Positions 6,421-34,426 of a stretch of 53,624 nt of DNA are shown in pieces. Source of the DNA: an uncultured Candidatus Saccharibacteria bacterium (GTDB taxonomy: Bacteria; Patescibacteriota; Minisyncoccia; Phycocordibacterales; Phycocordibacteraceae). Below the pieces are notes generated by a model. That model had not been told where the DNA came from, searched no databases, and worked only from the letters and a program-made list of their open reading frames with translations. The translations under genes were made by a program, and so were the position numbers. The stretch lies in the NCBI GenBank assembly GCA_964518755.1, contig CAZFHH010000002.1, positions 6,796 to 60,419 on the forward strand, given 5' to 3'. The first letter of the stretch is position 1. Every line of letters begins with the position of its first letter.

Positions 6421-8136
6421 ATGAAAGAGAGGATTTATACAATGGTTTCTAATGCTCTTGCAAAGCTTGGGGCAGAGGGCATTGAGTTTGCCGTGGAGTA
6501 TCCACCGGATTTATCGCATGGTGATTATGCGATAAATGCAGCAATGGTTGCGGCAAAACGTCTTGGCAAAAGTCCTCTGGAGCTTGCGGGCAGTCTGGCA
6601 CGAATCATTAAAGATGGTATGGGTGATGATGCCACACATGTTTTCGTTGCCGGACCGGGATTTATAAACATATCTTTCTCGGCGTCTTTTTATGAACATG
6701 TTCTTGAGGAAGCTCTTCGTGCAGGCGATGCGTGGGGAAGCACTGCCATGCTCTCCGGCAAGCGTGTCATCATTGAGTACGCAAACCCGAACCCATTCAA
6801 AGAGATGCACATCGGACATCTCATGGGGGCGATTATCGGTGAATCGTTGGCGCGGCTTTTTGAAAATGCCGGTGCACACACCGCTCGAGATACATTTGGC
6901 GGTGATGTCGGCCCACATGTGGCAAAGGCACTATTCGGATTGAAATATGCACACATTTCCACCCCCGCGAGTTCAAAAGAAATCGGCGAGGCATATGTGT
7001 ATGGTTCACGTGCGTATGAAGACAGCACAGATGTGCGTGAGAAAATTGATAAACTAAATGTCACTCTATACAGTGTTCTTGAAAAGCATTTTAAGAATGA
7101 AAAACTTACCACGGATGAACAGGGGCTGTACGAAACATGGGAAGTTGGCAGAAAGGTTTCAGTGGGTGCGTTTGAGGCGTTATACAAAAAACTTGGCATA
7201 CGGTTTGATTATGTTTTCTATGACAGCGATACCGTAGCTACGGGTCTTGAGGTGGTGGAGCGCGGACTTGCAAGCGGTGTGTTTGAAAAAAGTGAAGGAG
7301 CCATTGTGTATCATGGAGAGAAAAAAGGACTGCACACTCTTGTGTTTGTTACTTCGCGCGGTACTCCAACATACGAAACGAAAGACCTTGGGCTTGCAAT
7401 TCTCAAAGAGAAAAAATTTCCATCGGATAAATCAATCATCATTACAGCAAATGAGCAGATAGGGCATTTTAATGTGGTGCTTTCCGCGCTTTCAGAAATA
7501 GAAAATGCGCTTGCAAGAAAAACTGTGCATGTGTCGCACGGGTTTATGCGTCTTACAACGGGCAAGATGTCTTCTCGCCATGGCACCGTCATCACCGCCT
7601 CAGGGCTTATAGACAACGTCATCGCCATTGCAAAAGAAAAAAATGAAGATGATGAGGTGGCAACAAAGGTGGCGATTGGAGCGATTGTGTATATGGTGTT
7701 GCGTCAGTCGCCCGGGGCGGATATTATCTTTGACCCGGAGAAATCTCTTTCACTTGAGGGGGATTCCGGTCCTTATTTGCAATATGCGCTTGTGCGTGCT
7801 CTTTCCGTGTTGCGCACCGCAAGCAAAGACGGGCGCGGTACCTTGCACGCCGATGCCTCGGCATCGGCGTGCAAGGTACCGCGCGAACCACATGACCTTT
7901 TGCGAATACTGGTACAATTTCCGGATGTGGTGGCATACGCACAAGAGCGCCTCGCCCCGAATTTCCTCGTTACATATCTTACAAAGTTGGCGAGCCAATG
8001 GAATACATTTTATGCAAATGAGCGCATTATTGGCGGAGAATATGAAGAATATACATTGCGTATGGTGCGCCTGTTCGCACAAACGATGAGCAAGGGAATG
8101 AAACTCTTGGGCGTGCCGACACTGGAAAAGATGTAG
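6421..8136 (+). CDS. argS: arginine--tRNA ligase
   Basis: HGDYAIN, EYANPNPFKEMHIGH, KMSSR, EGDSGPYLQYA. Confidence 0.97.
   Translation: MKERIYTMVSNALAKLGAEGIEFAVEYPPDLSHGDYAINAAMVAAKRLGKSPLELAGSLARIIKDGMGDDATHVFVAGPGFINISFSASFYEHVLEEALRAGDAWGSTAMLSGKRVIIEYANPNPFKEMHIGHLMGAIIGESLARLFENAGAHTARDTFGGDVGPHVAKALFGLKYAHISTPASSKEIGEAYVYGSRAYEDSTDVREKIDKLNVTLYSVLEKHFKNEKLTTDEQGLYETWEVGRKVSVGAFEALYKKLGIRFDYVFYDSDTVATGLEVVERGLASGVFEKSEGAIVYHGEKKGLHTLVFVTSRGTPTYETKDLGLAILKEKKFPSDKSIIITANEQIGHFNVVLSALSEIENALARKTVHVSHGFMRLTTGKMSSRHGTVITASGLIDNVIAIAKEKNEDDEVATKVAIGAIVYMVLRQSPGADIIFDPEKSLSLEGDSGPYLQYALVRALSVLRTASKDGRGTLHADASASACKVPREPHDLLRILVQFPDVVAYAQERLAPNFLVTYLTKLASQWNTFYANERIIGGEYEEYTLRMVRLFAQTMSKGMKLLGVPTLEKM
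7833..7884. repeat. 52-bp perfect palindrome inside argS
   Basis: GCGCGGTACCTTGCACGCCGATGCC-TC-GGCATCGGCGTGCAAGGTACCGCGC. Confidence 0.95.
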
Positions 8137-8177
8137 TACAGCCCCGCTTTCGCGCGGAGCGCAAAAGCGGGGCTGTA
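8137..8177. repeat. palindrome right after the argS stop, 19-bp arms, GGA loop
   Basis: TACAGCCCCGCTTTCGCGC-GGA-GCGCAAAAGCGGGGCTGTA, one mismatch. Confidence 0.9.
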
Positions 8178-8256
8178 TCAACAAGCGTGTCTGTGGTATG
8201 TTTTATCGTGGATATGCCGAACCGCCGCCATAACAACAGACATGGAAGGAGACGCC

Positions 8257-8541
8257 ATGAAGATTAAAAAAGTTCCCCGGGAGAAGAATGATACAGTGAC
8301 GAAACCCTCACGTAAGGGACTGAGTATTTATGATATGTTTTTGTGCACCATACACAGATACGGCAAGTCTTTATTACCGGACCCGAAAAATGTCATCGGG
8401 TGTTCCGGAATTATGCCGGTGTATATGCACACATATATACATCAATGCCACTTGAGGGAAAGGGGACCGCAGTACCGCCCGGCGCGGCGGAAAAAATTAC
8501 ACCGTAGCCAGTGCTCCGCTTCGGCGCGCAAGCGCCGGTAG
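8257..8541 (+). CDS. small basic hypothetical protein, paralog A
   Basis: AAGGAG SD before ATG 8257; flanks and motifs shared with 8822-9154. Confidence 0.65.
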   Translation: MKIKKVPREKNDTVTKPSRKGLSIYDMFLCTIHRYGKSLLPDPKNVIGCSGIMPVYMHTYIHQCHLRERGPQYRPARRKKLHRSQCSASARKRR

Positions 8542-8564
8542 ATTGCTACAAGCAAATTCCACAC

Positions 8565-8610
8565 CCCGGGCGCGACACAGTCGTGCCCGGGTTTCCTTTT
8601 TCTCTCATAA
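8565..8610 (+). terminator. hairpin plus T-tract, copy 1 of a 46-bp direct repeat
   Basis: CCCGGGCGCGAC-ACA-GTCGTGCCCGGG-TTTCCTTTTT, identical to 9176-9221. Confidence 0.85.
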
Positions 8611-8821
8611 GGTGGGCGTATACAGTATGAGAAAAATATTAAAATTATAGGCTACTTTGTGTACAAAGAATGTACCAGACATCTCCCTATCAATCGGCAT
8701 ATAAAAATTTCACACGGTGACGTGTCTGTGGTATGTTTTACCGTGGGTGTATAAGATGGTTGACTGGTTGACGGTGGATATGCCGAACCGCCGCCATAAT
8801 GATAGGCAAAAAGGAGATGTT

Positions 8822-9154
8822 ATGAGAAAGAATGGAGAGTGCATAAAAGAGACAAAAGGGCAAGGGATCGTAAGGGAGTACTCGGAGATATTTTCCGCTC
8901 TTCACGAAAGGGAGTGGAACGTGAAAGATCTGTTCATTCGCGCGGCACGAAAACATGCACCGCACATGCGTAAGGGGAATATCATGAATGATGTAGAGAT
9001 ATTCCGGTATGCTGACGCGGGTGTCATCCCGAAGTATGTTAGGAAGTATATGGATGTATTGCGACGTGTACGAGAACGTACGATCAGGCGTGAGGTAGCG
9101 AAAAAACTTCCACCGCCATACAGACGCCCGTCTCCGGCGCAAGTGCGCTGGTAG
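8822..9154 (+). CDS. small basic hypothetical protein, paralog B
   Basis: AAGGAG SD before ATG 8822; GVIPKYVRKY and RER..KKL match paralog A GIMPVYMHTY and RER..KKL. Confidence 0.7.
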   Translation: MRKNGECIKETKGQGIVREYSEIFSALHEREWNVKDLFIRAARKHAPHMRKGNIMNDVEIFRYADAGVIPKYVRKYMDVLRRVRERTIRREVAKKLPPPYRRPSPAQVRW

Positions 9155-9175
9155 ACTTACGGCAGAATTTCAAAA

Positions 9176-9221
9176 CCCGGGCGCGACACAGTCGTGCCCG
9201 GGTTTCCTTTTTCTCTCATAA
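9176..9221 (+). terminator. hairpin plus T-tract, copy 2 of the 46-bp direct repeat
   Basis: Identical to 8565-8610. Confidence 0.85.
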
Positions 9222-9239: not shown

Positions 9240-12200
9240 ATGGAGGAAATACCAAAATCAGAAATGGCGTTGCGAGAGGAGGAAACACTTGTTTTCTGGG
9301 AACAGCACCATATTTTTGAAAAGTCACTTGAGAAAACTTCACCGGAAGGAGAGTTTATCTTTTACGAGGGACCGCCAACCGCTAATGGTCGTCCCGGTGT
9401 GCACCACCTTGAAGCGCGCGTATTTAAAGATGCCATTCCGCGCTACAAAACAATGCGCGGGTACCACGTACGTCGTCGTGCAGGATGGGATACACACGGG
9501 CTTCCTGTAGAGCTTGAGGTAGAAAAAGAATTAAAGTTTTCCGGGAAGAAAGATATTGAGCAATATGGTATCGCAAAGTTTAATAAAAAATGTCGTGCAA
9601 GTGTGTTGAAATACATTGATGAGTGGCAAAAGTTTACAGATCGTATAGGCTATTGGGTTGACCAAAGCAAAGCATATTTTACTTATGACGCAACCTATAT
9701 GGAATCAGTGTGGTCAATCTTAAAACATATCAATAATGATAATCGTCTCTATAAAGACTACAAGATTGTGCCGTGGTGCACACGTTGTGGCACCGCATTA
9801 TCATCTCACGAGCTGGCGCAAGGATATCAAGATGTCAAAGACTTGGCAGTTACCGTAGAGTTTAAAGTAATAGGAAAACAAAACATATCATTTCTTGCAT
9901 GGACCACCACGCCGTGGACATTGCCGGGCAACGTGGCTCTTGCTGTTGGCGCCAGCATCACTTATGTAACCGTTGAGAAGAAAGAAAAAGATTCTGATAA
10001 TCCATCGCGCTTTATTCTTGCAAAAGAACGCTTGCGGAGTGTATTTAGTGAAGAAGAGTATTCAATAATTGAGGAACACAAGGGAAGCGAGTTAGTGGGA
10101 ATGGAATATGAACCGATTTATTCGTTTATTCGTGAAATTGCGCCAATTGCCGAGAAGCCAAAATTTAAAAAAGCATTCCACGTATATGCCGCGCCATTTG
10201 TAACAACCGAGGATGGCACCGGCATAGTGCATATTGCCGTGATGTATGGACAAGACGACTTTGAGCTTGGTACTGAGGTGGGATTGCCCAAGGTACATGT
10301 TGTTGCTCCCGATGGGCTTTTTGTCCCGGGCACCGGGTTTCTTGAGGGGCGTTTTGTTAAAGGTGAAGAGCTTGCCGTGGATATTATAAAAGATCTCGCG
10401 CGCAAGGCGGTGCTTTTTGCGAAGGGGAAGTATGAACACACATACCCCTTTTGTTGGCGTTGTAAAACCCCGCTTATCTACTATGCGCGTGATTCGTGGT
10501 ATATCCGCATGCAGGATTTACGAAAAGAAATGGTCGCACAAAATAAACATGTCCATTGGGAACCGGAGCACATTCGTGATGGGCGTTTTGGGGATTGGAT
10601 TGCCGGAGCGAAAGATTGGGCTATTAGTCGCGAACGTTATTGGGGCACACCTCTTCCCGTATGGGAAAATGCAGACGGTAATGAACGAGCAATCATTGGT
10701 TCAATTGAAGAATTAAGACGTCATACTCGCAAAAGCGGAAACACTTATTTCATCATGCGTCATGGGCAAGCGCAAAGTAATGTCATTGGAAAAATCAGTA
10801 CAAAACTTTCCACAGAGAGTAAGGACTCTCTTACAGAAGTTGGGCGCGCACAAGTTTTGCAAAGTGCAAAGGAGCTAAAGGCGCAGGGTTGTGTTGACAT
10901 CATCATCGTCTCGCCGTTTCTTCGTGCGCAAGAAACGGCGAGCATTGTCGCGAAAGAGCTAAGTATTCCAAAAGACGCTGTGCATACTGATGTCCGTTTG
11001 TGCGAAATAGATGCCGGAGAGCTTGATGGCGTGTCGTACGAAGAATGGCGCGCTTTTTTCCCGTCTGTTGAAGACAGGTTTATCAAGACGCCCCCCGGCG
11101 GTGAATCCTTTAATGATGTACGTATTCGTGTTGCGCAATTACTGTATGAAATTGAAAAGCAATATAAAGGAAAACGAATCCTTTTGGTATCGCACGAAAG
11201 TCCGTTATGGATGTTGCAACTTGCCGCACTTGGCATATCGGGCGGTGATGAAAGTGTTCCAGTCAAGTATGGCAATGCACAGTGGGGTGTGATTGATTTC
11301 GTCTCACTTCCGCACAATGAAAATTATGAACTGGATTTACATCGCCCATATATTGACGATGTCGTGCTGGTTTCAGACAAAGGAACGGAGCTTCACAGGG
11401 TTAAAGAAGTTATTGATGTGTGGTTTGATTCGGGTGCCATGCCTTTTGCTTCCGAGCACTATCCGTTTGAAAATAAGAAGTGGGTTGAAGGAGTCGGGTA
11501 CCCTGCGGACTTCATCTCTGAGGCGATTGACCAAACGCGTGGGTGGTTTTACACGCTTCTTGCGGTCGGCACTCTTATGGGGCGTGGGATGGCATATAAA
11601 AACGTCATTAGTCTCGGGCACCTGCAAGACGAAAATGGACAAAAGATGTCCAAATCAAAAGGTAATATTATTAAACCGTGGGAAGCTATAGATAAGTGGG
11701 GCGTTGATACGCTTCGTTTTTGGATGTATAGCGTCAATCAGCCTGGTGAGGCAAAGAGCTTTGATGAAAAGACCGTGCGCGAAGCGGCGCGGATACTTTC
11801 TTGGTTTGAAAATAGCGCAAAGTTTTATGAACTCTTTAAAGACCACGTGTCCAACGAGGAATCGGAGCCAAAAACAATTGATCAATGGATGCGGTTGCGT
11901 ACGCAACAAACGGTGCGTGCGGTTACAGCCCATTTTGATAACTATAAATATTTCGACGGTGCGCGTGCCATTGCAACATTGCTTGAAGATTTATCTCAAT
12001 GGTATGTGCGACGAATTCGTGACAGGGCGCGCGAGGGTGACCGCGCTGTTATTGAAACACTTCGTGAGACATTGCACACTATAGCGCTTCTTATCGCTCC
12101 GCTTTCACCATTTATAGCTGAACGAGTATTTCAGAATGTTCGCAAAAATACCGATGTGGAAAGTGTACATCTTGCGCGGTGGCCGGAAGGAGTTGCATCA

Positions 12201-12707
12201 CTTTATACATATATAGTGCACGCAGTTTCAAAAGAAAGTGATGACAAATTGCTTTCCGACATGGCTCATGCCCGTGCGTTCGCTTCTGAGGCACTTATGC
12301 TTCGTCAAAGGGTTGGAATAAAAGTGCGCCAACCTCTTGGTGCGTTGTACATTCCGGGAGAACTTTCCGATGATCTTGCTTCAATACTCGCGGAAGAGGT
12401 AAATGTAAAACATGTCAAAACCAATGCTCCAAAACTGGAGCTTGATACCGCACTTACCGAAGATCTTATTCACGAAGGGGATGTACGAGAATTTTCGCGC
12501 GCCATTGCTTCGGTGCGCAAAGAAATGGGACTCTCCCCGACGGATACGGTTTCGCTTTCAATTGAAGCGTTGGCACAACAGCGCATGGGTGGTGTCGTGT
12601 TTGCCGGGGTGTCGCACGTTGCGTTTGTGTCTGTGGAGGAGTGCAAGCATAACGTGACTCTTTCGTCGGGCATCGTTCATTTTTCAATTCAACACAATGC
12701 GTCATAA
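9240..12707 (+). CDS. ileS: isoleucine--tRNA ligase (type 2) with inserted histidine-phosphatase domain
   Basis: EGPPTANG, GWDTHGLP, WTTTPWTL, PFCWRCKTPLIYYA, KMSKS; internal FIMRHGQAQSN...VSH domain. Confidence 0.96.
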   Translation: MEEIPKSEMALREEETLVFWEQHHIFEKSLEKTSPEGEFIFYEGPPTANGRPGVHHLEARVFKDAIPRYKTMRGYHVRRRAGWDTHGLPVELEVEKELKFSGKKDIEQYGIAKFNKKCRASVLKYIDEWQKFTDRIGYWVDQSKAYFTYDATYMESVWSILKHINNDNRLYKDYKIVPWCTRCGTALSSHELAQGYQDVKDLAVTVEFKVIGKQNISFLAWTTTPWTLPGNVALAVGASITYVTVEKKEKDSDNPSRFILAKERLRSVFSEEEYSIIEEHKGSELVGMEYEPIYSFIREIAPIAEKPKFKKAFHVYAAPFVTTEDGTGIVHIAVMYGQDDFELGTEVGLPKVHVVAPDGLFVPGTGFLEGRFVKGEELAVDIIKDLARKAVLFAKGKYEHTYPFCWRCKTPLIYYARDSWYIRMQDLRKEMVAQNKHVHWEPEHIRDGRFGDWIAGAKDWAISRERYWGTPLPVWENADGNERAIIGSIEELRRHTRKSGNTYFIMRHGQAQSNVIGKISTKLSTESKDSLTEVGRAQVLQSAKELKAQGCVDIIIVSPFLRAQETASIVAKELSIPKDAVHTDVRLCEIDAGELDGVSYEEWRAFFPSVEDRFIKTPPGGESFNDVRIRVAQLLYEIEKQYKGKRILLVSHESPLWMLQLAALGISGGDESVPVKYGNAQWGVIDFVSLPHNENYELDLHRPYIDDVVLVSDKGTELHRVKEVIDVWFDSGAMPFASEHYPFENKKWVEGVGYPADFISEAIDQTRGWFYTLLAVGTLMGRGMAYKNVISLGHLQDENGQKMSKSKGNIIKPWEAIDKWGVDTLRFWMYSVNQPGEAKSFDEKTVREAARILSWFENSAKFYELFKDHVSNEESEPKTIDQWMRLRTQQTVRAVTAHFDNYKYFDGARAIATLLEDLSQWYVRRIRDRAREGDRAVIETLRETLHTIALLIAPLSPFIAERVFQNVRKNTDVESVHLARWPEGVASLYTYIVHAVSKESDDKLLSDMAHARAFASEALMLRQRVGIKVRQPLGALYIPGELSDDLASILAEEVNVKHVKTNAPKLELDTALTEDLIHEGDVREFSRAIASVRKEMGLSPTDTVSLSIEALAQQRMGGVVFAGVSHVAFVSVEECKHNVTLSSGIVHFSIQHNAS

Positions 12708-13269
12708 ATATTTTGTTTCCGGATTGGTTCTCGCAAGGTTTCCTTTTTCTGAAGACAGTGCATCGCTTGTGCTTTTAACCGATGAGCTGGGGCTTTTAAG
12801 GGCGCGGGCGCGCGCCATACGTAAACCATCCGCAAAGCTGGCAAGCTCACTGCAAACGTTAACTGAATCAAGAATCTCATTGGTGCACGGGAAGCTTGGG
12901 TGGCAATTGTTCGGCGCACAGTGCGTACGACAATGGGCACCTAAACTTTCTTTCGTAGCACGTGCGCGTGCCGCGCGGGTGAGTGAGCTCCTTATTCGTC
13001 TTGCCCCGGGCGAACTGAAGCAAGTGTCACTGTACAATACTTTCGTTGGTTTTTTCAAGGCACTGGATGAATTTCCGGAAGAACTTCATGAGTCAATAGA
13101 GCAACTTGCCGCTTTGCGCACGGTGCATGCGCTTGGGTTGGACGACGGTATTCTGCCGGCTAAAGAGGGGGAGGCTATATATTATTCGGAGGTATTGCAT
13201 GCTCTTGGCGAAGATAGTGGTGAATATGTGATGCGCATCAATCGCGGTATCGCCGCTTCAGGGCTGTAG
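12697..13269 (+). CDS. recO: short RecO-like DNA repair protein
   Basis: N-terminal pattern VLARFPFSE..LVLLTDELGLLRARARAIRKPSAKL. Confidence 0.8.
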   Translation: MRHKYFVSGLVLARFPFSEDSASLVLLTDELGLLRARARAIRKPSAKLASSLQTLTESRISLVHGKLGWQLFGAQCVRQWAPKLSFVARARAARVSELLIRLAPGELKQVSLYNTFVGFFKALDEFPEELHESIEQLAALRTVHALGLDDGILPAKEGEAIYYSEVLHALGEDSGEYVMRINRGIAASGL

Positions 13270-23330: not shown

Positions 23331-23459
23331 CAGCCCGGGAAATTTTGGACATCCTCCAATGTCCAAAATTTCCCGGGCTGCTATGCTTAAGCCTTTTGTA
23401 GAATATAAAATAACCCCGGCAAAGTCAGACATTCAATGTCTGACTTTGCCGGGGTTATT
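23331..23459. repeat. two perfect palindromes (23331-23380, 22-bp arms; 23409-23459, 25-bp arms)
   Basis: Both have GACAT/ATGTC at the stem tip. Confidence 0.95.
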
Positions 23460-34288: not shown

Positions 34289-34426
34289 GTTAATGGGGTC
34301 AGGAGCCATTTATTTATTTCACGAAAGGTCGGGCTTTCCATATACTGTTGGGAAAAATATCGGACATCCGATGTCCGATATTTAGATGTCCGATATTTAC
34401 TGTTAATGGCTCCTGACCCCATTAAC
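34289..34426. repeat. REP/REPIN-like element: 22-bp inverted repeats enclosing an internal palindrome
   Basis: GTTAATGGGGTCAGGAGCCATT (34289-34310) and its complement (34405-34426); internal AAATATCGGACATC-C-GATGTCCGATATTT with one arm duplicated. Confidence 0.8.

Follow-up and report, generated by a model that had tools for sequence, protein, structure and literature searches.

The window analysed here, a stretch of 53,624 nucleotides from contig CAZFHH010000002.1 of an uncultured Candidatus Saccharibacteria bacterium (assembly GCA_964518755.1, positions 6,796 to 60,419 of the forward strand), carries a perfect palindrome of 52 nt within argS, the gene for arginyl-tRNA synthetase (ArgRS). 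With moderate confidence, it is proposed that hairpin-templated strand switching has written, perfected, extended and flipped this palindrome in a tolerant linker of the enzyme, and that the palindrome is not a mobile element. The evidence comes from the anatomy of the palindrome, from the lack of any other copy of it, from the all-or-none perfection of palindromes across the genome, from the recurrence of palindromes in argS orthologues, and from strain alleles that differ by one copying event.

Anatomy of the argS palindrome

The two inverted arms of the palindrome, each 25 nt long, lie at window positions 7833–7857 and 7860–7884 and are 100% complementary to each other, with the dinucleotide TC between them (7858–7859), just as the first-pass annotation of this DNA had described them. 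The palindrome is in frame within the argS open reading frame (ORF), which spans 6421..8136 on the + strand and encodes 571 aa. The frame passes from Gly-471 through RGTLHADA, Ser-480 and ASACKVPR to Glu-489, residues 472–488 being encoded by the palindrome. The left arm contributes the third base of the Gly-471 codon and the codons for Arg-472 to Ala-479, the centre TC makes up the first two bases of the Ser-480 codon, and the right arm supplies the last base of that codon followed by the codons for Ala-481 to Arg-488, thereby extending into the linker's conserved P-x-x-P-[YH] end. At the outer end of the right arm, G7883 in the Arg-488 codon CGC pairs with C7834. The peptide had been placed right after '...SVLRTA'; its location in argS holds, but the adjacency is loose, with SKDG standing between the two. 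When the 112 nt around the palindrome are folded as RNA, the free energy is −66.9 kcal/mol, compared with −38.6 ± 3.8 kcal/mol for shuffled sequences (z = −7.5).

The arm has no other match with up to three mismatches in the window (0 of 100 shuffles gave a match) and none with up to five mismatches in the whole genome, which comprises 672,743 bases in 29 contigs, is 97% complete, has a G+C content of 44.8% and is Patescibacteria-like. An exact 21-mer of the palindrome has 0 matches in genome_contigs, where records of the same genome or of near genomes may be left out. The palindrome belongs to none of the palindrome families of the genome. A 12-mer is common to it and to the intergenic palindrome G000:C3:41979, and this is treated as chance because it is a bare 12/12 match with a blastn-short E value of 1.3.

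The host enzyme and its linker

The host gene encodes ArgRS, with all three defining domains in one chain. Arg_tRNA_synt_N (PF03485, aa 5–85), tRNA-synt_1d (PF00750, aa 108–438) and DALR_1 (PF05746, aa 453–571) all score over the curated cut-offs of Pfam, and chains in the Protein Data Bank (PDB) match over aa 21–571, with E = 1e-44 for yeast ArgRS (1bs2/1f7u) and E = 2e-41 for E. coli ArgRS (4oby). An AlphaFold2 (AF2) model built on an alignment with 41 orthologues has a mean predicted local distance difference test (pLDDT) score of 92.2 and a predicted template modelling (pTM) score of 0.91. In this model, residues 470–491 form a coil flanked by helices 450–469 and 492–497 (the codons for residues 471–491 occupy 7831..7893), and the pLDDT score falls below 50 at residues 476–482. 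Among 109 distinct orthologues, no part of the C-terminal domain is more variable or richer in gaps than the linker. The orthologue comparison and the AF2 coil thus agree with the earlier description of this segment as a length-variable linker of the ArgRS anticodon-binding domain that is read in frame. Only the last codons of the palindrome touch the conserved P-x-x-P motif, and the remaining codons lie in the most variable segment.

Measured from SVLR up to the P-[YH] motif, the linker is 24 aa long here as compared with 20–27 aa in the nearest relatives. Alignment of this segment gives single-residue gaps with yeast ArgRS and gaps of 3 and 1 with E. coli ArgRS, the lengths being about equal. 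Deletion of the 52 nt, which is not a multiple of three, shifts the frame, and the first stop is then reached at residue 539 of 554. Because the linker is no longer than those of the relatives and because the deletion shifts the frame, the palindrome is best read from the alignments as occupying, and having rewritten, a linker of native length without net insertion. An element that is excised or bypassed was also considered and rejected, since removal of the 52 nt breaks the frame and since all palindrome-bearing orthologues keep one frame. The first-pass annotation had left open whether the palindrome formed or landed in argS, and had likened it to elements adding peptide to proteins. The linker lengths, including those of yeast and E. 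coli ArgRS, and the lack of a second copy speak against landing and against added peptide, and formation in place is favoured. No orthologue carries the same peptide with non-palindromic codons, which is the finding that the annotation had named as capable of overturning its reading.

Strain alleles at the palindrome

The locus is present in contigs of four public runs from three studies. The strain alleles are assembled contigs (Logan), with two variant holders. Run X1, which may be the source of the genome, has one contig over 7300–8237 with 0 differences from the window. In run X2, two contigs break at the palindrome centre, one ending at 7857 and the other starting at 7855, each with 0 differences. 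Run X3, which belongs to the same study as X2, has a bridging contig whose only differences over 938 nt are 7858 T>G, 7859 C>A and 7883 G>C, and run X4, from the third study, has a bridging contig with these three differences and with four others at 7971, 7985, 8174 and 8177. As regards the read support that had been asked for as a check, assembled contigs span the palindrome, with the window allele in X1 and with the variant allele in X3 and X4. No RNA run is among the listed holders of the locus.

The same contigs bear on the notion that the palindrome is an assembly or amplification product such as a chimeric fold-back. Palindromes break de Bruijn graphs, the assembly is of metagenome type with its 29 contigs, and the X2 contigs do end at the centre, at 7855–7857. 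Nevertheless, four runs from three studies hold the locus, and two contigs from two studies bridge the palindrome and share one variant allele. Neither the frame nor the conserved flanks are disrupted, and orthologues from many independent assemblies have palindromes at the same place. Moreover, in a simple fold-back chimera the upstream sequence would be expected to follow as its reverse complement, which is not so here. An artefact is therefore highly improbable, and an assembly artefact in particular was rejected on the strength of the independent contigs that hold the palindrome.

In the X3 type, the centre reads GA, which is the reverse complement of the TC in the window, and C7883, in the Pro codon CCC, stands as a mismatch opposite C7834, so that the perfect arms measure 23 nt instead of 25 nt and the peptide reads ...ADAEASACKVPPEP. 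When positions 7834–7859 of the X3 type are reverse-complemented, they equal positions 7858–7883 of the window exactly, whereas copying in the opposite direction leaves one mismatch. Because of this exact match, the window type can be obtained from the X3 type by one copying event, while the reverse path needs a second change. The window allele therefore looks derived relative to the X3 type, in view of this event parsimony, of the state common to X3 and the more distant X4, and of the fact that 5 of the 12 nearest relatives listed have Pro, the X3-type state, at the Arg-488 column. By parsimony, the event would have flipped the loop, closed the mismatch at the 24th pair to lengthen the arms from 23 to 25 nt, and changed Glu-480 to Ser and Pro-488 to Arg.

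Five of the seven X4 differences are located inside the two hairpins of this region, namely the argS palindrome and the hairpin after the argS stop, which together account for 93 of 690 nt (binomial P = 7e-4). At positions 8174 and 8177, it is the window alleles that pair within the hairpin after the argS stop. The clustered changes at the palindrome match the footprint of a template-switch mutation, in that a single reverse-complement copy that improves the stem accounts for them. In six near-identical metagenome locus pairs, only one of 68 differences is at a hairpin, but these loci are almost without hairpins.

Palindromes across the genome

Perfect palindromes with arms of 12–30 nt and centres of 0–8 nt number 334 in the genome and 0 in the shuffled genome. 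Relative to 702 ORFs, which make up 88.6% of the DNA and serve as a simple gene set, 150 are intergenic, 44 lie across a gene end and 140 lie inside ORFs. Sixty-two of the 334 are deep-coding, that is, at least 30 codons deep in ORFs of at least 250 aa. Pfam domains (E ≤1e-5) were found in 18 of the 20 host ORFs tested. The hosts include a cysteine desulfurase-like enzyme, RNase HII, IF-2, UvrA, MurB, a Mur ligase, MnmA, ParB, an ATP synthase subunit, PolA and TsaD, and the palindromes in the tested host ORFs lie mostly between domains. The peptides encoded by palindromes are enriched in Ala (2.7-fold), Pro (2.1-fold) and Arg (1.7-fold). With 62 of 334 palindromes deep in genes and with domains in nearly all tested hosts, the earlier statement that these hairpins are not only terminators stands.

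A terminator was rejected for argS itself. The stem is located 252 nt before the stop codon, no T tract follows it, and the terminator scan made no call there; the argS palindrome therefore does not show the features of an intrinsic terminator, which are a G+C-rich stem located after a stop codon and a U tract behind the stem. Among the 62 deep-coding palindromes, a run of at least four T after the stem on the sense strand is found in only 2.

The stems are nearly all perfect. When mismatches are allowed, stems of at least 14 bp number 293, of which 278 are free of mismatches, 10 contain one and 5 contain two, and the shuffled genome has none; only 7 of the 20 mismatches are G:T. Stems of at least 22 bp number 85 in this genome. 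In four relatives, of which 778 kb were sampled, 80 of 85 stems are perfect. Centres of only 0–2 nt are present in 132 of the 334 palindromes, and the symmetry therefore reaches bases that are unable to pair in a hairpin, which fits copying better than selection for folding. The orientation of the loop relative to the sense strand shows no bias, with GAA:TTC ratios of 7:7 in coding regions and 6:8 behind genes, and the 62 deep-coding palindromes show no codon-phase bias (24/19/19). The small number of G:T mismatches, the centres of 0–2 nt and the random loop orientation together point to a copying process at the DNA level rather than to selection on RNA folding.

Proposed strand switching at hairpins

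In the mechanism proposed, a replicating strand at a hairpin-forming site would briefly copy the other arm and then return, the target of the switch being the nascent or the complementary strand, as in template switching and quasi-palindrome mutation (Ripley model). Each event would overwrite one arm with the exact complement of the other, which would remove mismatches and could push the pairing into the flanks and invert the centre. Such events would be frequent and weakly opposed in an ultra-small genome without a signature of MutS, ExoVII, ExoI or SbcD, and palindromes would build up where the product is tolerated, namely downstream of genes and in protein linkers free of constraint. The argS copy would have been made and maintained in place, in the native-length stretch that links two helices of the anticodon-binding domain. 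It would be translated straight through as a disordered loop rich in Ala, Ser and Gly, without terminator function, and would be nearly neutral for the enzyme. It is from the pattern that we infer strand switching by a polymerase during replication.

No match to MutS_V, Exonuc_VII_L, the ExoI C-domain or SbcD_C was found in this genome, which is 97% complete, and RecJ is present. Among 41 relatives, MutS_V is found in 0, and Exonuc_VII_L over the cut-off is likewise found in 0. Exonuclease I of E. coli reportedly aborts template switching.

The individual steps have precedents. Quasi-palindrome mutations are said, in the available text of PMC6357072, to 'universally perfect the palindromic sequence', and the lacZ quasi-palindrome (QP) reporters of E. 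coli treated there resemble the argS alleles in that a reverse-complement copy perfects or extends the stem and inverts the spacer. Imperfect inverted repeats are corrected by template switching in Proteobacteria according to the accessible portion of PMC5941160. In the excerpts of Monttinen and Loytynoja (2022, PMC8794818), template switching can create and maintain stems and yield multi-base compensatory changes, a likeness that extends to compensatory-looking double changes without an intermediate. The scale is different: the non-coding inverted repeats of E. coli have a mean length of 5.75 bp and are all shorter than 20 bp in the portion of PMC5941160 that is available, whereas the 85 stems of at least 22 bp found here belong to a genome one seventh the size. 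In addition, dozens of palindromes are here written into essential genes, and the mechanism is proposed from the pattern.

Small inversions at plastid hairpins (Kelchner and Wendel 1996, as cited in the text at hand of PMC12371153) are similar in that the loop occurs in both orientations in relatives while the flanks stay fixed. As far as that text goes, those inversions are non-coding, whereas here the flip changes the codon of residue 480 between Ser and Glu in an essential gene and is accompanied by an extension of the arms.

The closest likeness in protein-coding DNA is to the coding palindromes of hairworm mitochondria, described in the consulted sections of Mikhailov et al. (2019, PMC6649704) as perfect inverted repeats in frame with 'binary' identity; these authors suggest that template switching converts one arm to match the other and that the repeats are parasitic and without function. 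Both sets lie in frame in essential genes, are nearly all perfect, and have gains and losses scattered between species. The in-frame perfect repeat is present in argS, and the all-or-none identity and the gain and loss between species are seen here in the 278 perfect stems among 293 and in the unrelated palindromes in a minority of orthologues. Arms in conserved sequence are not found, in that the argS copy lies in a variable, disordered linker. Further differences, judged from the same sections, are that theirs is an animal mitochondrion with arms of up to 284 bp and ours a bacterial chromosome with arms of 12–30 nt, and that here no codon-phase bias is seen and strain alleles one copying event apart are available. 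A search of the literature found no report of in-frame palindromes for Candidate Phyla Radiation, Patescibacteria or Parcubacteria; the supplementary lists of intragenic repetitive extragenic palindromes (REPs) of PMC3733652 were outside this search and may include argS cases.

Palindrome families and the mobile-element explanation

At a 12-mer threshold, 248 of the 334 palindromes are singletons, among them 53 of the 62 that are deep-coding, and the rest form small families. The largest family has 27 copies, is REP-like and has the form TCGGACATC(C/G)GATGTCCGA with C or G as the centre; its copy in the window is located at 34360–34378. Two adjacent perfect palindromes at window positions 23331–23380 and 23409–23459, with arms of 22 and 25 nt, have the inner arm ends ...GACAT / ATGTC..., with ATG opening the right arm, and resemble this family. 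Three matches to the Y1 transposase PF01797 are over the cut-off, none of them near argS. The match on C8 (G000:C8:3292–3893) has members of the 27-copy family 200–330 nt away, the match at G000:C2:3434–3676 has internal stops, and a further match lies at G000:C1:8777–9115.

These families and transposase genes raise the possibility that the argS palindrome is itself a copy, perhaps the last one left, of a REP-like element, a miniature inverted-repeat transposable element (MITE) or a Rickettsia palindromic element (RPE), inserted in frame and possibly moved by a Y1 (HUH) transposase. Genes for such transposases are present in 28 of 41 related genomes, and intragenic REPs and in-frame RPEs are documented in the accessible text of PMC3733652 and PMC10969869. 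In addition, GACG, the complement of the CGTC tag, stands 2 nt upstream of the left arm. This tetranucleotide nevertheless fits chance, because CGTC-type tags accompany only 4 of the 334 palindromes, and GTAG-type tags accompany only 7. No second copy is found in the genome with up to five mismatches in 25 nt, and exact copies of the 21-mer were likewise not found in genome_contigs, from which near records may be missing. The length of 52 nt is not divisible by three, and the linker does not exceed those of the nearest relatives or of yeast and E. coli ArgRS in length. The two linker palindromes tested from genomes of the same genus, G014 and G017, are also unique in their own genomes. A mobile origin of the argS palindrome is accordingly regarded as doubtful. 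Insertion of whole palindromes as a rule was rejected for the genome at large, the total lengths of the 62 deep-coding palindromes falling into the three classes modulo three as 25/20/17.

Comparison with the two best-known element types leads in the same direction. In the available parts of Di Nocera et al. (2013, PMC3733652), the REPs of the REP-RAYT (REP-associated tyrosine transposase) system are stem-loops located mostly behind genes and sometimes in replication or repair genes, as here, and the genome studied here also has Y1 transposase genes and other palindromes that form such families. Those parts give 20 to thousands of units, GTAG or CGTC tags, and stems of 5–13 bp with frequent G:T pairs, whereas the argS palindrome has 25 perfect pairs, no family and no tag common to other palindromes; of these features the family is found for other palindromes of the genome, such as the 27-copy group. 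The RPEs, as far as the excerpt of PMC10969869 covers them, are alike in that the palindrome is read in frame in housekeeping genes without destroying the gene, and they are about 150 bp long, form ten many-copy families, encode a conserved peptide and add residues. The argS palindrome, in contrast, is 52 bp long and unique, encodes no conserved peptide and brings no net gain in length. The Rickettsia elements, which the first-pass annotation had named as a precedent, are therefore useful as an analogy, but the family, the size and the added residues that define them are absent from argS.

Recurrence in argS orthologues and the question of a selected structure

ArgRS genes were collected from 29 related genomes and 80 metagenome contigs. 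A linker palindrome with perfect arms of at least 9 nt is present in 13 of the 106 sequences that reach the linker (identical pairs kept), and these palindromes form about eight unrelated sequence groups. L039 (77% identity), the nearest relative of full length, has a different palindrome with 12-nt arms that starts at the same GGGCGCG, and L044 (78% identity) and L034 (69%) have no linker palindrome. In L035 and L039, whose palindromes are homologous, 3 of 18 stem positions differ, always with both arms changed. The IF-2 gene, in which one site is common to orthologues, gives a comparable picture. There, 22-nt arms in this genome enclose the core and a TCC loop that the relative L173 has as 10-nt arms, and the two cores differ at 2 of 10 positions, both compensated. 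This comparison of two sequences suggests outward growth of a palindrome in a second gene. The polA gene shows no recurrence, with four palindromes at four different sites in 30 orthologues.

Such paired changes would also be expected if the hairpin were kept by selection as an RNA or DNA signal in argS, for example for pausing, stability or processing, protein binding or replication, with strand switching at most renewing it. The great stability of the argS stem, the location of many host sites in inter-domain linkers, and the confinement of 22 of 25 argS palindromes to two places, with 10 of them in the linker in about eight unrelated sequences, favour this explanation. Against it stand the linkers themselves: 87 of 102 orthologue linkers fold within z −2 to +2 of shuffled sequences, and this, together with the lack of a linker palindrome in L044 and L034, indicates that the structure is dispensable. 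G:U pairs are nearly absent, complementarity continues into centres of 0–2 nt, the loop is oriented at random, and the same perfection is seen in every context and in unrelated genes. The lack of recurrence in polA also argues against a selected structure, as do the strain alleles, in which the loop is flipped and two residues are changed while the gene is retained. A selected structure is thus unlikely to explain the argS palindrome.

Related to this is the conjecture that both fixed hairpin places of argS, the one in the N-terminal domain and the one in the linker, are functional, with highly stable in-frame hairpins serving as co-translational pause sites, mRNA-processing signals or replication signals at domain boundaries that are renewed by strand switching, which must be put forward very tentatively. 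If it were true, structural signals inside essential genes could be kept by mutational drive instead of point-by-point selection, and renewal would let the sequence drift while the structure stays.

Several observations weigh against strand switching in a tolerant linker. The first is the distribution of palindromes along argS. Palindromes with arms of at least 10 nt number 25 in the 109 distinct argS sequences (176 kb), of which 10 are at aa 474–486 and 12 at aa 35–72, and none is found at aa 73–434 in these orthologues, although that part also has several regions rich in gaps. The palindromes do cluster, but the raw counts exaggerate how strongly, because the segments were defined post hoc and because kin are not independent. 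A purely neutral process without local seeds would not predict recurrence at two places. Seeds may be provided by GC-rich, self-complementary codons for Ala, Gly, Pro and Arg, as in GAPAAGAP and RELADELAR.

Secondly, the sum of arm and loop is a multiple of three in 31 of the 62 deep-coding palindromes (P = 0.007) as compared with 45 of the 150 intergenic ones; for the argS palindrome, this sum is 27 nt. In 17 of the 62, the arm and the loop are each divisible by three, where 6.9 such cases would be expected. This periodicity raises the possibility that some coding palindromes began as in-frame inverted duplications, that is, as insertions of the loop plus one arm.

Thirdly, repeat families do reach argS in relatives. 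The linker palindrome of L026 (G027:C6:39851–39893), in a genome of another family, has a 20-nt arm with two related copies at G027:C1:8383–8405 and 13243–13265, with 2–3 mismatches, and looks like a head-to-head dimer of a small repeat. In L019, a copy of a REP-like family occupies the N-terminal argS site. Both cases would also suit a mobile element.

Fourthly, stems of at least 14 bp occur at 0.44 per kb here and at 0.07–0.15 per kb in G012, G017, G025 and G027 (about 200 kb each), which is 3–6 times more, and in long ORFs the numbers are 85 here and 1–9 in these four relatives. No gene difference that would explain the excess over the four relatives was found. Loss of MutS or ExoVII was rejected as its cause, since all 41 genomes searched are alike without MutS_V and ExoVII_L. 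The repair-gene background can, as judged from gene content, explain the stem perfection of the whole order, but not the excess in this genome.

Finally, the strain differences are thin: they consist of assembled contigs with two variant holders over one stretch of 1.1 kb, and their direction is set by parsimony.

Implications of the strand-switching explanation

If hairpin-templated strand switching holds, one copying event flipped a loop, lengthened a stem and altered two residues of an essential enzyme, and the genome would be a natural experiment on how DNA secondary structure rewrites proteins. It would likewise bear on how perfect stems and apparently 'compensatory' changes arise without intermediates, and on why genomes without mismatch repair and single-stranded DNA (ssDNA) exonucleases fill with perfect palindromes. 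In-frame palindromes of ultra-small bacteria should not be taken by default for mobile-element insertions, covariation in such stems is no proof of RNA function, and assemblies of such genomes tend to break or differ at palindromes.

Other features of argS and its surroundings

A second, smaller palindrome of argS is located at 6509..6537 on the + strand, within the N-terminal region in which palindromes recur. It has 11-nt arms and a 7-nt loop and encodes the peptide DLSHGDYAIN. Its right arm codes for the invariant residues Gly-34, Asp-35 and Asn-39 and its left arm for variable residues, as though the sequence of the variable arm had been made to fit that of the constrained arm.

The hairpin after the argS stop (8137..8177, + strand) has 19-nt arms with one C·A mismatch and the loop GGA, and the differences at 8174 and 8177 are in its outer right arm. 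GTAG precedes this hairpin (8133–8177) and supplies the TAG stop, as with GTAG-tagged REPs.

Further downstream, direct repeats of 26 and 44 nt are present at 8186–8260 and 8721–8808, 535–566 nt apart. In all four runs there are also contigs in which 27 other letters stand at 8208–8211, and the summed depth rises two- to three-fold at 8188–8261. These signals suggest that the DNA downstream of argS has an alternative arrangement or contains a repeat. A 56-nt direct repeat is found at 8555–8610 and 9166–9221, with 95% identity and a distance of 611 nt, around a small ORF at 8717–9154, and each copy of it has its own CCCGGGCGCGAC / GTCGTGCCCGGG hairpin.

The gene for isoleucyl-tRNA synthetase at 9240–12707 (1155 aa) contains a complete histidine-phosphatase domain (PF00300, aa 504–670, E = 7e-31) within the catalytic domain, as well as a palindrome with 13-nt arms at 10910–10942.

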